Assembly: GCA_963792415.1 (NCBI GenBank)
Contig: CAWBVY010000006.1
Coordinates: 288,001 to 352,000 of the forward strand
Direction: 5' to 3'
Origin: Candidatus Deferrimicrobiaceae bacterium
GTDB taxonomy: Bacteria > Desulfobacterota > Deferrimicrobia > Deferrimicrobiales > Deferrimicrobiaceae
Length of the DNA stretch: 64,000 nt
The notes beneath the pieces are model-generated. The model ran no database searches. It was not told the origin of the DNA and was given only the letters and a program-made list of their open reading frames with translations. The position numbers and the translations under genes are program-made. Each line of letters begins with the position of its first letter. Position 1 is the first letter of the stretch. Shown here one piece after another: positions 2,428 to 60,273 of the stretch.

Positions 2428-2520
2428 GGTCACAAGACGGTCACAAGCTCCTGCCGGAAAATCGATCCTTTATCCGTTAAGAGGATTTGGCGGAATCGAC
2501 GCTCGGGGTGCGCACCCGCA
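2428..2520 (+). repeat. att-like module copy C (arm repeats, 50 bp, core)
   Basis: GGTCACAAG at 2428 and 2439; GACGCTCGGG 2498-2507; spacer GTGCGCA; CCCGC. Confidence 0.75.
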
Positions 2521-2746
2521 CCCGAGCCTCTCGCGCCGCGCCGGTCCACCATCCGTCGCCATTCGGCCGTGTTGAGCCTCACCCCACCCCTGGTCCAACC
2601 CCAAGAATAAAGAATCCCCTCCTTCGCTTCGCGGTCCGGGAGTGTCGCCATGACGACGACCCGGGACATGCCGCAGGGAACCCCGCGCAGTGAAACGGAA
2701 TCTGAAATGGAAGCGCTCAATCTTTCGAGGGGCCGGAGGAAGGAAA

Positions 2747-3352
2747 ATGAGAGCGTTTCTGGAGCAACCGATGAGAAGATCCGACTTCCTCAGGTTCGGT
2801 TTCGCCGTCGCGGGAGCGTTGTTCCTTTCTCCGTGCCCCTGGTGGGAGAGGACCCCGGCCGCGGAAGCCGCAGAGGAGGCAGGGGCGCACCGGGGCGGAA
2901 AGGAGGAAACCATCAAGGTGTATTCCGTGGAGAAGAAGGAGTTCGTCACGGTCGGGAGAGTGGTGAAGACCGATGCGGAGTGGAAGAAGGTGCTGGAGTT
3001 CGAGCAGTACGTGGTGACACGGGAGAAAGGAACCGAGGAGCCATTTTCGGGGCAGTACGTCGATACCCGCGAAAAGGGGGTCTACCGGTGCGCCTGTTGC
3101 GGGAACGATCTCTTCCTCTCGGACACGAAATACGATTCCCGGACCGGGTGGCCCAGTTTCTACGCGCCCGTCGCCGAGGAGAACATTCGTCGGGAACCCG
3201 ACAGCGCCTCCCCCGCGATTCGCCCGGAGGTCCTATGCCGCCGGTGCGATGCACACCTCGGCCACCTGTTCCCGGACGGCCCGGGGCCGACCGGATTGCG
3301 ATACTGCATCAATTCGGCTTCCCTGGTTTTCATCAGGATGGAATGGAAGTGA
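2747..3352 (+). CDS. msrB: Peptide-methionine (R)-S-oxide reductase with Tat-like signal
   Basis: GTEEPFSG, CACC, GWPSF, CRRCDAHLGHLFPDGP, RYCINS; N-terminal RRSDFLR followed by hydrophobic stretch. Confidence 0.92.
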   Translation: MRAFLEQPMRRSDFLRFGFAVAGALFLSPCPWWERTPAAEAAEEAGAHRGGKEETIKVYSVEKKEFVTVGRVVKTDAEWKKVLEFEQYVVTREKGTEEPFSGQYVDTREKGVYRCACCGNDLFLSDTKYDSRTGWPSFYAPVAEENIRREPDSASPAIRPEVLCRRCDAHLGHLFPDGPGPTGLRYCINSASLVFIRMEWK

Positions 3353-3467
3353 CAGGAGCGCATCGAGGAAGTCCATGGAGAAACGGGAGCAAATCGGTGT
3401 AACATTACTCTACGGGATCGACGCGCAGGCACCGCTTCCAAGACCCGGAAAGGGGGAAACCTTCGCC

Positions 3468-3962
3468 ATGATCAAGGTGAAATCCTTTACCACCCAGCTC
3501 AAGATCTTCCAAACGCGTAACGAACTGGACGAACTGGACAAGGAGGTCAGCGGCTTCATCGCATCCCGGGGGATCAGGAAAGTGATCTCCATCAGCGATT
3601 CTTCCACGACAGGGAATTCGGGGGAAACGATCGGCCTGATCCGGGTGTTGGCTTACGAGGAGCCCGTGGCCGGATCCAGGGAACATTACCAGGAGCAGAT
3701 CGAATCCACGCTCAACGAATGGGGTGAAGAGATCGAAAAAATCCGGAAGAAGGCCGACAAACTGGGCGCGGAAGCCAGGGGCAAATACCGGGACCAGATC
3801 GCAGACCTGCGCGCCAGGCAGGAAACCGCAAGGGAAAAACTGGAGGACCTGAAGAGGGCCGGGGGGGAGGCGTGGGAGGATCTTCGGGGCGGTGCGGAAA
3901 CGGCCCTCGACGAACTGAAAAAGGGCGTGGAGGGAGCCGTCTCCAAACTTAAAAAAAGCTGA
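3468..3962 (+). CDS. Two-domain hypothetical protein with C-terminal coiled coil
   Basis: RBS GGGGGAAA; C-terminal half resembles small coiled-coil stress proteins (AWEDLRGGAETALDELK). Confidence 0.7.
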   Translation: MIKVKSFTTQLKIFQTRNELDELDKEVSGFIASRGIRKVISISDSSTTGNSGETIGLIRVLAYEEPVAGSREHYQEQIESTLNEWGEEIEKIRKKADKLGAEARGKYRDQIADLRARQETAREKLEDLKRAGGEAWEDLRGGAETALDELKKGVEGAVSKLKKS

Positions 3963-3970
3963 TCCGGTAC

Positions 3971-3997
3971 GACCGTTTTCAAAATAACCCGAAGGTC
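3971..3997 (-). repeat. tRNA-fMet-like att core, reverse orientation
   Basis: minus strand GACCTTCGGG-TTATTTT-GAAAACGGTC; plus strand ATAACCCGAAGGTC is identical to the tRNA-fMet anticodon 3' side. Confidence 0.7.
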
Positions 3998-4204
3998 TTG
4001 AGCTACCCCGAGGTATAAGGTAAGACCGAAAATCCTGTTTTGTCCCGAAGGATTTATCGTAAGACGCAAGCCGTCGCCATACTTATTGCAAGACATCCCT
4101 TAATGACTCTATGTATACGATATGGATTAATTTTCTGGCATGCAGGAGATCCCCCGACTTCACGAAAGCGGCGTTGGAGAGGGATCGACTCCCCGCATGT
4201 CGGA

Positions 4205-58478: not shown

Positions 58479-58542
58479 CCTTTGGCTCCCTTCGGCTCCA
58501 TCGCCGCCGCACGCCAAGCGGCTTGAGACGGCGGAGGCAGAT

Positions 58543-58791
58543 TCAGCCCACCACCTGTTTTCCCACACCCATTTCATTTAATATTGATTCCATCTGTTCT
58601 TCCGTTATCCAGTTATTTTCCAGAAGAATATCTCCGAGGAGCCTGTGAGGCTTTTGCGTGACGTTATCCTCCATCTGCTCCGCGAGTGCGAGTTGGACCT
58701 GTTCAAGGGTTACATACTTTCGATTGAAGGCGATTCTCCCGAACCGGAAGGTCATCATGTTCGGGGATATTTTCATATTGTCCTTTTCCAT
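58543..58791 (-). CDS. Stand-alone MshEN-like small protein
   Basis: FGRIAF..YVTLEQVQLALAEQ and LLGDILLENNWITEEQMESIL. Confidence 0.6.
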   Translation of the reverse strand: MEKDNMKISPNMMTFRFGRIAFNRKYVTLEQVQLALAEQMEDNVTQKPHRLLGDILLENNWITEEQMESILNEMGVGKQVVG

Positions 58792-58840
58792 ATCTACCTC
58801 CTTTTTTTATCCGCTCCCTCGGCGGGTACGAGCAAAACCG

Positions 58841-59146
58841 TTAGACGATAAAGGCAATGTTGAGTGATTCGGAAGATTCGGAATACAAGGGAGGACTTTC
58901 TGGTGTCTTTCCCTTGAAACCGTGACAATATCCTCGTGAGTACGAATCGATGTAAGAATCTCCGCTGTCGCCAATAGAGTAGCCGATAAGCATGCGGTGC
59001 TCCTCGATCCATTCATCCGAAACACCGAAAACCTGAGCCTCTATTCCCTGGTGGTATCCTCGGAAATAATCAACCCACGGCGATTCCGAAGAATCAATCA
59101 GCGGGTCGATGATACTGAAATGCGATTTGCGTTCATTCTTGTCCAT
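58841..59146 (-). CDS. Hypothetical protein (YxRGY / DxYxxGY family)
   Basis: paralog of 19012..19308. Confidence 0.7.
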   Translation of the reverse strand: MDKNERKSHFSIIDPLIDSSESPWVDYFRGYHQGIEAQVFGVSDEWIEEHRMLIGYSIGDSGDSYIDSYSRGYCHGFKGKTPESPPLYSESSESLNIAFIV

Positions 59147-59347
59147 CCTTATCCCCCTTACCGTTCAATTCTCACCTGAACGAATTCTTCGGCAGGTACG
59201 GACAATATCTTTATGGGAAATTCAGCGGGGTTTGCGGTGGAAGTGGCGGTGGAAATGATCGTGGTTCGGAGGTGCTGGAATTAACGGATGCATGAAGGTG
59301 GGTGAATCCGCAACCTTCGGGGCGGGTACAACCCCATCAGGATAAGG

Positions 59348-60088
59348 TCAAACGAACATCTGCGACTGCGATGATTTCAATACTTCAAAAATCTTCTCCG
59401 CATCGCCGGCACTTATGCGGTTCGGCAATCGCTTCAGGTAAGCGGGAAAATATCGCCGGCGGATGACCTCTACACCTCTCACCTGCTGTCGTACTTGTAC
59501 ATTGGCATTGGCAAACAAGATGACCGGTTGTGGCTTAGGTGCCGATATATTTTGGCGAGCGATAATATCCTGGATATAAATTGCCTGCACCAATGCCTGC
59601 CTGATAAAGTCCTTTTCGAACGGTTTCTCGTCGCGTTGCAACAGAGCCCCTTCACAGGTAACGACTCCTCGGTGGCTTTTCGTCTCAACGGTGAGGATCC
59701 CTTTCGTGGAAATGACGATGTGGTCGATGTTCCCCCTCTTAGATACGAAATCATGCACGACAAAATATCCCGCAGCCAGTTCCCCCTGCAGGTTCCCAAC
59801 CGCCTCTTCTGCCACCGCTCCGTGGCGGGCATCCAGGACCCGATCAGCGTACGCATCCGCCTTGGCACCCATCGCTTTTATCCAATATATAATGCCGACG
59901 AAGACCACGAGTGCGACTGGGATTCCCAGGGTTGCGATCGCCTTGCTGTTCTTGCTGTACAGGTAGATGCCCGCGAACATGATGATCAAGACGAAGAGCG
60001 CTGCCATCCACCGGGCGGCTTCCATCCTGCGGACCCCCACCCCGGCCTTGTTGTACACCGTCGCTCTTGTGGAATTCAATTCCGCCAT
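59348..60088 (-). CDS. Membrane-anchored NERD domain protein
   Basis: paralog of 19321..20076; GNIDHIVISTKGILTVETKS. Confidence 0.88.
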   Translation of the reverse strand: MAELNSTRATVYNKAGVGVRRMEAARWMAALFVLIIMFAGIYLYSKNSKAIATLGIPVALVVFVGIIYWIKAMGAKADAYADRVLDARHGAVAEEAVGNLQGELAAGYFVVHDFVSKRGNIDHIVISTKGILTVETKSHRGVVTCEGALLQRDEKPFEKDFIRQALVQAIYIQDIIARQNISAPKPQPVILFANANVQVRQQVRGVEVIRRRYFPAYLKRLPNRISAGDAEKIFEVLKSSQSQMFV

Positions 60089-60232
60089 CCCCTTCCCTTT
60101 CCCCGAATACGGAATACACCCTCCATGGGGGAAAAACCGAAGCCACATTCTGGGCGCATAAAACCTTGCGGCCAGGCCTTTTCCTCCGAATCTCTTTTCG
60201 GAAGGAGGGGTTACGAAGTTTAGGGGGCAAAA

Positions 60233-60273
60233 GACCTTCGGGTGGGATGCCTATAGGTCTAGTGACCTTCGGG
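60233..60273 (+). repeat. Two tandem att cores
   Basis: GACCTTCGGG-TGGGATG-CCTATAGGTC, then GACCTTCGGG at 60264. Confidence 0.75.

Follow-up and report, generated by a model that had tools for sequence, protein, structure and literature searches.

Gene modules that carry no integrase of their own appear to have been reassorted in the Candidatus Deferrimicrobium lineage by site-specific recombination, at sites resembling the anticodon stem of the initiator tRNA gene (tRNA-fMet). We give this reading a probability of about 0.6. It comes from a stretch of 64,000 nucleotides (nt) of a Candidatus Deferrimicrobiaceae bacterium (C6:288001-352000, hereafter the window), in which the 10-mer GACCTTCGGG recurs as the left half of a short site core. 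Our confidence that these cores are site-specific recombination junctions is higher than that for the whole reading, and our confidence in the identity of the acting enzyme, which is judged by gene position only, is lower. A preliminary description of the window had proposed an integron analogue built on a tRNA attachment site, in which one integrase with a fixed half-site shuffles gene cassettes.

The core motif is strongly concentrated in the window. All eleven exact copies of GACCTTCGGG reported in the preliminary description were recovered at their places and on their strands, while dinucleotide-preserving shuffles gave a mean of 0.29 copies and a maximum of 2. The five near-exact copies (2498, 17142, 20223, 55805 and 59312) were also present and differ from the motif by one or two changes each. 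The whole genome (11 contigs, 2.84 Mb) holds 56 copies, of which 20% lie in the window, which makes up 2.3% of the genome; these genome-wide counts leave out C6:792001-864000 (72 kb, which reads N). According to a crude gene caller based on third-position G+C (GC3), 10 of the 11 window copies are intergenic versus 5 of the 45 elsewhere. All copies had been described as intergenic, and among the exact copies this holds except for copy 3988, which is overlapped only by a weak open reading frame (ORF). Outside the window, 40 of the 45 copies fall in coding sequence and one of the five intergenic copies is the tRNA-Met gene itself, which is unlike a genome-wide pattern of terminators or UUCG hairpins. 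Together with the extended element described below, whose significant matches all lie in the window, this agrees with the earlier view that the motif is not scattered as terminator loops. Two copies at C6:899247-899290, outside the window, form an intergenic palindrome with a 13-bp stem and an 18-nt loop, which looks like a bidirectional terminator unlinked to the array.

The window is a low-GC region and makes up most of a variable region of about 68 kb on the 3' side of an initiator-type tRNA-Met gene. Its G+C content is 0.52-0.64 up to about 69.7 kb and 0.65-0.70 past 70 kb (genome mean 0.649), and third-position G+C rises from 0.55-0.85 to about 0.9 at this border (about 69.7-70 kb). No tRNA gene was found inside the window. 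The lineage is represented by metagenome-assembled genomes only.

Context alignment showed that most motif copies are the core of an element of 80-134 nt (A-type), which is present across the genus. A search of 28 genus genomes with a 14-nt pattern and one mismatch was noisy, with many coding matches, and shows presence only. The full element is found at 42244-42391 and 56705-56848 (82.7% identical) and consists, in this order, of a hairpin-like module, two GGTCACAAG repeats, a block around GGAAATTCTT, an AACTT..AGGATTC stretch and the core. The two 9-nt direct repeats are spaced 11 nt and occur nowhere else in the genome. In most sites the conserved sequence, about 70-120 nt, lies on the left side only. 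A profile of the 66 core-proximal nt gave seven genome matches with an expectation value (E) below 0.001 (nhmmer), all in the window and all on the + strand. Significant matches were co-oriented in the relatives too (7/7 in this genome, G000; 5/5 in G005:C59; 5/5 in G002:C4; 3/3 in G010:C37), whose elements are likewise clustered. Where linkage to the tRNA is known (G000, G010, G021), the elements point in the direction of the tRNA's own motif.

The site itself consists of the left half-site GACCTTCGGG, a 7-nt spacer and a degenerate inverted half-site near CCCGAAGGTC. Among the matches listed, the left half-site was exact in 97 of 103 distinct cores, and the commonest spacers were GTGCGCA (31) and GTGGGTG (18). 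The inverted half-site reached a mean match of 4.72/10 at +17, versus 2.9 and 3.4 at the neighbouring offsets +16 and +18 and 2.4-2.6 at +27 to +57. Seven or more matches were seen in 20 of these 103 cores, versus 0-1 at far control offsets, and the right half was absent from the search pattern used to collect the cores. The 7-nt spacers with partial inverted partners described earlier were confirmed at 60233 (7/10) and 3988 (5/10) and on re-reading at 21709 and 42365, the last of which reads GTGGTTT then CCCGAC. This geometry is both the core layout of a tyrosine recombinase and the layout of the tRNA-fMet anticodon stem-loop. A second kind of left arm (B-type) occurs at 20223 and 60233, in a 0.8-kb paralogous segment with a NERD-domain gene. 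Most sites share only the half-sites (10 + ~5 nt) with the tRNA, and the A- and B-types contain no T arm and no acceptor stem. An A-type element joined to the 5' half of the tRNA could not rebuild it. Most sites are not tRNA fragments but a separate, conserved element of ~130 nt.

To locate homology junctions, a metagenome scan with a 19-nt pattern (core -6 to +12) was used, which gave at least 80 loci. By eye, about 13 of 68 distinct contexts were judged chance matches in GC-rich coding sequence, and the remainder had the left arm. A profile then placed 121 cores in 85 sequences, namely the window, the relatives' loci and the metagenome loci among the matches listed, to which the following counts also refer. 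All sequences were compared with each other by blastn, keeping high-scoring segment pairs (HSPs) of at least 200 nt and at least 85% identity and dropping ends less than 30 nt from a contig end. This gave 1268 internal homology ends, 244 of them within 300 nt of a core. Left-body homology ended at core +11 to +19 in 67 of 147 cases (23 distinct cores), with 28 ends at +12/+13 and 18 at +16. Right-body homology started at +14 to +29 in 34 of 97 cases (17 distinct cores), 16 of them at +16/+17. An even spread over 600 nt would give about 8 ends per 20-nt bin. These results agree with the expectation that breakpoints between genomes coincide with the 7-nt spacers. They also suggest that the spacer can stay with either side, which would fit an enzyme tolerant of unlike spacers. 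The right-body starts were not scattered through the ~130-nt element, which argues against homologous recombination between repeats.

Single loci behaved in the same way. Five metagenome contigs match up to 3151 nt to the left of core 42365 and diverge after +12/+13 into different right neighbours. Two further contigs, among the matches listed, have the left body of the 18830 element in common with the window, and their homology stops at core +12. In contigs L079, L093 and L135, from different metagenomes, the 40796-42229 gene module is succeeded by the module 56003-56832, which in L087 and L144 begins at core +16/+17 of another, intact site type. In the window this module sits after a displaced tRNA fragment and the decayed stretch 55997-56011. 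It recurs in a 919-nt contig of sequencing run X2, with 4 differences over 830 nt, and the sequence to either side of it there does not match that of the window. The same module was thus found in at least four neighbourhoods, at 84-99% identity. Four sequencing runs were covered as short Logan contigs, and what is said of them refers to the matches listed and to the parts with cover. Twelve runs contained half or more of the sampled words, and the strain occurs in estuary and sediment populations. In the relatives, genes of the window are present at 85-95% identity in shuffled order and are scattered over very long variable regions; that of G010 begins at the tRNA (152 kb) and reaches at least 285 kb. 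On these alignments, strains have exchanged, gained and lost modules, with the junction in or at the spacer.

The tRNA gene links these sites to an integration target. A tRNA-Met(CAT) gene that shows the initiator's three G-C pairs is located at C6 c[354364,354440] (window coordinates 66364-66440), 2.4 kb from the right end of the window. It holds the motif, exactly as quoted in the preliminary description, together with the anticodon loop and the inverted half. It is flanked by an IS3-family transposase on the window side, and by a 155-amino-acid (aa) ORF, an ORF6N-domain protein and an integrase on the other. The transposase gene (rve, rve_3, HTH_21; window coordinates 65096-66127, outside the window) adjoins the 3' end of tRNA-fMet and occupies the place where an island's own integrase is expected. 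Within the window, 55730-55813 consists of 37 nt of the tRNA 3' part and a 47-nt terminator flank, with a terminator-like hairpin at 55740-55767, and is the sole partial tRNA copy in the genome. It represents the former end of an island that had integrated at this tRNA, and it encloses a 10.6-kb island with the intact gene. The motif GTCAC in the 3' flank, at the distance of the GGTCACAAG repeats, was rejected as an integrase arm site, since in six aligned tRNA loci it proved to be the tRNA terminator stem with compensating changes.

Displaced tRNA fragments were also found in the relatives, three within 5 kb in G005 and one each in G021 and G010. In the copies of G005 and G021, tRNA likeness stops exactly past the anticodon loop TTATGAG, and similar sequence comes next in three of four. 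The modules between the G005 fragments measure 1.7 and 3.3 kb, have no integrase and encode pyridoxamine-oxidase-like, Fic and AbiEii-like proteins among others. Small integrase-less modules bounded by true tRNA 3' halves thus occur, by alignment, in the same region of the relatives. Because the fragments end after the loop and the modules carry no integrase, we conclude that integration at the anticodon loop occurs here and that integrase-less units take part in it. In the 10-kb flanks of distant relatives of the integrase, partial tRNA copies were found at two loci only, both in Deferrimicrobium.

The tyrosine integrase sought beside tRNA-fMet is present. An intact gene of 340 aa lies at window coordinates 67753-68775, 1.3 kb past the tRNA, and the sites of the array come no closer than 6 kb to the tRNA and 7.5 kb to the integrase. 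In five of five relatives examined the gene order was tRNA-fMet, integrase, core genes, and nine contigs of the genome collection had full-length integrases of 87-92% identity. Alignment and peptide patterns showed the usual catalytic motifs with arginine, histidine and tyrosine. With only about 37 residues ahead of its core-binding domain, the protein is unlikely to have an arm-binding domain. Relatives at 35-60% identity converge on the 3' end of a tRNA (Leu, Gly, Ser, Ala, Arg or Met), and G002, G024 and one other assembly additionally have a further paralogue, which occupies the classical position or lies beside a displaced tRNA fragment. The integrase is of a generic phage type (best PHROG phrog_1), and its nearest solved structure is Tn1549 Int, a weak match (29 bits, E 3e-6).

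Recombinase genes are scarce in the arrays themselves. As described earlier for recombinases in general, the window gave no match to PF00589, the search covering neither serine recombinases nor DDE transposases. PF00589 was likewise not found in the arrays of G002, G005, G010 and G012, and 382 kb of element-bearing metagenome contigs held one distant tyrosine recombinase only, among the matches listed. In the genome, PF00589 matched at C6:356188, 365801 and 568239 and on other contigs. A contig of Deltaproteobacteria bacterium CSP1-8 has two GACCTTCGGG sites with GTGGG-type spacers (L056:21 and L056:3198), without the A-type left arm, and also bears fragments of integrase relatives at 63-69% identity. 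The system may extend beyond the genus.

We propose that each module ends in one recombination site and that all sites point one way. A tyrosine recombinase would cut at both edges of the 7-nt spacer, and modules between directly repeated sites would be excised and then re-inserted at other sites. The enzyme would be the conserved 340-aa integrase beside the tRNA, which its position makes the candidate; it would act in trans and tolerate unlike spacers. Such an array would behave like a chromosomal integron or a cis-mobilizable island array, outside the integron family. The part of the earlier proposal that stands is module exchange at the sites; for a single, neighbouring enzyme with a fixed half-site, the pointer is gene position. 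The modules are not limited to the proposed cassettes of one to three genes: they range from 0.8 to ~16 kb and are often multi-gene, with genes on both strands.

Several observations weigh against this proposal. Tyrosine recombinases mostly require matching spacers. The A-type spacers differ from TTATGAG, which leaves the entry of modules at the tRNA unexplained, and the failure of these elements to rebuild the tRNA with its 5' half counts on the same side. The proposal does not account for the conserved left arm. Only gene position links the integrase to the sites; in contrast to its relatives it is found 5' of the tRNA, and it is broken in G010, G012 and G021, which retain elements. One X2 contig joins 42143 to 42417 via 15 other letters, so that the two flanking genes are adjacent without the 42365 element and the break is not at the spacer. 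Breakpoints off any core were found at 57630 and at 25688 (core +91). The copies at 17142, 59312, 25597, 50048 and 3988 showed no junction at the spacer. Excised circles joined at the core, which had been suggested, were not found: no overlapping ends were seen in the 80 metagenome loci among the matches listed. Most metagenome loci come from short-read assemblies, which may misjoin sequence at repeats. The HSP counts include both directions of pairs and near-duplicate contigs and are not independent events, and the selection of loci fixed core -6 to +12, not the right half or the flanks.

To our knowledge, integrons are the only well-understood case in which a fixed recombinase builds long arrays of recombinase-less modules, and their site is single-stranded. 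In an integron, co-oriented sites separate promoterless cassettes beside the integrase gene. Like chromosomal integrons, the region studied here has one tyrosine recombinase gene at the edge of a long recombinase-less array, a co-oriented site of about 100 nt at one module end with a fixed junction point near the site end, and varied cargo that differs between close relatives. In contrast to integrons, whose IntI-clade integrases have an extra domain, the integrase fails the integron-integrase model (NCBIfam integrase_gron, 38 bits versus a cut-off of 265; PRK15417, 18 versus 435), and a tRNA gene stands in place of attI. The sites appear to resemble a double-stranded core, two half-sites around 7 nt, rather than attC, an imperfect palindrome with conserved outer core sites that recombines as a folded single strand; this comparison was made by reading alignments and showed no inverted outer boxes and one-sided conservation. 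The modules, often multi-gene and up to ~16 kb with genes in either orientation, also differ from those of integrons. The earlier term of an integron analogue on a tRNA attachment site is supported in part: the array would work like an integron, most sites are not tRNA fragments and the integrase is not of the integron type. We regard it as possible, and put forward only tentatively, that this is a second, independently evolved capture platform of the integron kind, with a resident phage-type integrase fixed by the initiator tRNA gene, primary docking at the anticodon arm of that tRNA, a portable site of ~130 nt that mimics the arm and tags multi-gene modules, and crossover in a 7-nt spacer without need for a match; such a platform would have exchanged modules between strains and built a variable genome of 60 to >130 kb in an uncultured lineage. 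No description of such a system was found in the literature searched, and the A-type sites, with their mimicry of the anticodon arm, their own spacers and their one-sided arm, fit no system found there.

Two kinds of integrase-mediated movement come close. Streptococcal cis-mobilizable elements are bounded by attachment sites, lack an integrase, are moved in cis or trans by the integrase of a neighbour and build tandem arrays. The modules here are likewise integrase-less units between putative sites of this kind in tandem, as in accretion. The streptococcal arrays, however, consist of few elements next to a functional conjugative element, whereas here there are at least a dozen sites, the integrase lies outside the array and no conjugation genes were seen among the proteins scanned. 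Integrases of the Tn916/Tn1549 type tolerate unlike overlap sequences. Spacer tolerance would fit the present integrase, whose nearest solved structure, weakly, is of that type, but Tn916 and Tn1549 are conjugative transposons with AT-rich targets, unlike the fixed GC-rich half-sites found here.

An unlikely alternative is that the array is a fossil. Self-mobile islands would have entered tRNA-fMet serially, lost their integrases and been scrambled by deletions, with nothing moving today; the A-type elements would be the conserved arm of the old islands' attachment sites, and there would be no resident capture platform. The displaced tRNA halves in G000, G005, G010 and G021 show that tandem integration is real, and the second integrase paralogue in G002, G024 and one other assembly is in the usual position. 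The tRNA fragment in the window has decayed (94%, loop altered), and several cores are degenerate. Against this, the A-type sites cannot restore the tRNA and hence are not remnants of tRNA-type attachment sites. Repeated and fairly recent exchange is indicated by the single module in at least four neighbourhoods at 84-99% identity. The integrase by the tRNA is intact in most genomes, and the 382 kb of element-bearing contigs hold, among the matches listed, that one distant recombinase.

Classical tRNA-gene islands fall into sublocation classes, one of which has its crossover in the anticodon loop. The displaced fragments (55730-55813 and those of G005, G010 and G021) agree with that class in ending after the anticodon loop, and the integrase relatives adjoin a tRNA as expected of such islands. 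The displaced tRNA 3' copy that marks an anticodon-loop island was found at the fragment sites only and not at A- or B-type sites, which cannot restore the tRNA. An island-borne integrase by the restored tRNA was not found: G000 has the IS3 transposase there and the integrase lies on the 5' side. The modules between fragments, at 1.7-3.3 kb and without an integrase, also set this region apart. Islands in tRNA genes are compiled in the Islander database (PMC4383910). A closely similar published pattern is that of the Dehalococcoides ssrA islands, which lie in a high-plasticity region downstream of a single-copy small-RNA gene, with many direct gene-end repeats within 100 kb (PMC3146451). Many of these islands lack an integration module and are discussed as fixed or cis-mobilizable, moved by accretion (PMC3146451). 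The likeness consists in a variable region past a small-RNA gene, many direct repeats and integrase-less members, and to that extent it supports the fossil account. The ssrA islands, however, carry serine recombinases and their repeats are copies of the ssrA 3' end (PMC3146451), whereas in Deferrimicrobium a tyrosine integrase is fixed beside the tRNA and the sites are mostly a separate element with its own spacers.

We consider it improbable that the dispersed element acts in regulation or as an RNA (for instance as a promoter with activator site, as a leader or as a UUCG-loop hairpin) and that its copies of ~130 nt merely served ordinary homologous recombination, which shuffled the modules. 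A hairpin with a 7-nt loop can form at the core, the closely spaced pair of GGTCACAAG repeats presumably resembles a response-regulator binding site, and genes to the left of window cores often start on the opposite strand at a distance of 30-280 nt. However, the fold energies of ten elements on both strands were not clearly better than those of shuffles (z -2.0 to +1.7). Of the two hairpin arms, the left is invariant and the right agrees at under half of its positions on average, which argues against selection for base pairing. A scan for sigma-70 promoters and terminators in 42000-61000 gave no consensus at any element, and an Rfam scan of the window at gathering thresholds gave 0 matches. 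Among the matches listed, the nearest genes of 107 distinct cores showed no preferred orientation (left, 38 minus and 37 plus; right, 49 minus and 30 plus). The peak of right-body breakpoints at +16/+17 and the restriction of the element to one region and one orientation also weigh against this explanation.

Use of the sites by Xer-type dimer-resolution recombinases or another recombinase of the genome, as in the dif-flanked modules of Acinetobacter plasmids or in elements that exploit Xer, seems very improbable. The genome does contain two further tyrosine recombinase genes with strong scores, one of which belongs to the conserved core and lies some 10 kb from the tRNA. The spacer GTGCGCA together with the G residues before it (e.g. 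2505-2514) may resemble part of the XerC-side arm of proteobacterial dif, and plasmid Xer sites can have accessory sequence on one side only. The half-sites, however, correspond to the tRNA-fMet anticodon stem, and the same arrays contain true tRNA-type sites with this geometry. Xer/dif modules have 28-nt sites, usually alternating in orientation, with XerC and XerD arms around a 6-nt centre, whereas the spacer here is 7 nt and the sites are all co-oriented, and the integrase family beside the tRNA is tRNA-specific in the relatives. An equally remote explanation is the end of a small non-autonomous transposable element that inserts independently of its neighbour genes: one metagenome contig has the genes flanking 42365 adjacent with the element absent, and two paralogous segments differ from each other in the stretch where the 18830 element is found, but conservation is one-sided, alignments showed no second end, terminal inverted repeat or target duplication at the element, the element is confined to this region of the genome and whole gene modules move along. 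A clean insertion of the 18830 element was rejected, since comparison of 18541-19080 with 58329-58920 showed about 320 nt replaced by 360 nt. In viral contigs, two element-derived patterns had 0 matches.

The sites and related features of the window are collected in Table 1. The preliminary description had taken all listed copies as sites. This is doubtful for the five copies without spacer junctions mentioned above, among which 17142 does have the tRNA-like spacer described for it. The B-type copies 20223 and 60233 lie in paralogous segments, and homology also ends there at core +13/+14.

Table 1. Sites and associated features of the window (positions 1 to 64,000; E values from nhmmer)
Position	Strand	Feature	Remarks
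147..173	+	Degenerate A-type core AACCCTCGAG, spacer GTGCGCA	Leftmost copy; match 105-161, E 0.056
2426..2524	+	A-type; GGTCACAAG at 2428/2439, core GACGCTCGGG 2498-2507, spacer GTGCGCA, right half CCCGCACCCG	E 9.9e-9
3971..3997	-	Exact 10-mer in opposite orientation, spacer TTATTTT, between 237-aa ORF and topoisomerase I gene	Site status uncertain; not A-type
17142..17168	+	Near-exact GCCCTTCGGG, spacer TTATCAG, between convergent genes	Right half 0/10; no nhmmer match; no site evidence
18830..18926	+	A-type, core 18900, spacer GTGTGGG	E 3e-11
20153..20249	+	B-type GTCCTTCGGG, core 20223, spacer GTGGGTG, upstream of NERD-domain gene	Homology to 59471-60246 ends at 20237 (core +14)
21660..21735	+	A-type core-proximal part, core 21709, spacer GTGGTTC, right half CCCGATCATT	E 2.7e-9; reads GTGGTTC then CCCGAT
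25597..25623	+	Exact 10-mer, spacer TTGGCTG, weak element	E 1.1
28116..28191	+	Short A-type, core 28165; hairpin module joined directly to core, middle ~70 nt absent	E 1.2e-4
31454..31550	+	A-type variant, core 31524, like the 18900 copy	E 6.9e-9; 18858-18922 vs 31482-31545, 80%
42244..42391	+	Full A-type: hairpin module, direct repeats, GGAAATTCTTCCAG block, core 42365, spacer GTGGTTT, right half CCCGACCAGG	82.7% to 56705-56834
50031..50057	-	Exact 10-mer in opposite orientation, spacer TTGGTAA	Site status uncertain; nearest homology end to a relative 76 nt off
55730..55813	+ (opposite to tRNA sense)	Displaced tRNA-fMet 3' copy and terminator flank	94% over 84 nt to intact tRNA region
55997..56011	+	Decayed core-like stretch, left border of adhesin-E-like module	Likeness judged by eye
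56003..56832		Whole module: gene 56058-56663 (-) and A-type element up to core	Run X2 contig; contigs L079, L093, L135
56705..56848	+	Full A-type, direct repeats 56752/56763, core 56822, spacer GTGCGCC	Best nhmmer match, E 5.4e-15
59312..59338	+	Near-exact AACCTTCGGG	No nhmmer match; no site evidence
60163..60290	+	B-type, core 60233, spacer TGGGATG, right half CCTATAGGTC 7/10; second core 60264	Homology to 19459-20237 ends at 60246 (core +13)

Further homology ends were seen at single sites. In G012, homology to 2205-2416 ends just short of the 2426 element. This relative also has the pyridoxal-phosphate-enzyme gene found downstream of 25597, and with it an A-type element that is equally placed and oriented but stronger; homology begins at core +91. 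At copy 3988, homology of four relatives to 3396/3447-3967 ends about 30 nt from the core, and in those relatives the topoisomerase gene is elsewhere or 5.7 kb away. The hairpin module of the short 28165 element (28116-28155) is 87.5% identical to 56705-56744. A contig of run X12 has a loose end at 56705, and one of run X1 terminates at 60244. The X2 joint 42320-60233 was not counted, as one side has only 20 letters, and the joint 56922-58354 probably reflects the paralogue at 17.9-18.6 kb. The cores 60233 and 60264 are only 31 nt apart, and the inverted half-site of 60233 is the best in the window; the pair could be what remained after the loss of a module.

The genes of the array are a miscellany of accessory enzymes and envelope proteins. 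Among other products, they encode multihaem cytochromes, radical SAM and cyclopropane-synthase-type enzymes, two L,D-transpeptidases, DUF169 proteins, two NERD-domain proteins, a PIN7 protein, an M48 peptidase and an adhesin-E-like protein. Pfam searches of 50 window proteins and 4 neighbouring ones showed no conjugation or phage structural genes. A 944-aa topoisomerase I with four C-terminal repeats is encoded at 4205-7039, inside the variable region. This gene is present in G010, G012 and G021 at very different distances from the tRNA and was not found in G002 or G024 by DNA search (E 1e-20), and it may be an accessory copy.

The segment 17939-20237 is a degenerate paralogue of 56849-60246 and holds fragments of the DUF169 gene, a piece of a small gene (92%) and a NERD gene with its upstream sequence (78%). 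Internal tandem repeats were found in a DUF5018/Fib_succ_major gene (43079-44126, period ~261 nt) and in a Sel1-repeat gene (60852-61432, period ~84 nt). Short sequences are common to the starts of unrelated genes (7889-7975 and 54661-54747; 48743-48775 and 60447-60479), and metagenome contigs have several joints and loose ends at 54696-54754 and 60363-60479. Those joints that map to 60363-60479 and 54744-54754 coincide with such sequences, repeated at several gene starts, which may be a signal-peptide or lipoprotein leader acting as a hotspot of recombination or assembly.

Even if the array were a scrambled stack of old islands, its sharp junctions would provide a clean rule to delimit modules in these genomes. 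If modules are indeed reassorted at these sites, the compact pair of site and enzyme would be usable as a candidate recombination tool. The genome-building strategy known from integrons would then have arisen a second time from an ordinary tRNA-targeting phage integrase, whose attachment site became detached from the tRNA and portable. This would explain the large and fast-changing accessory region in the 2.8-Mb genome of a lineage that is widespread in sediment and groundwater.

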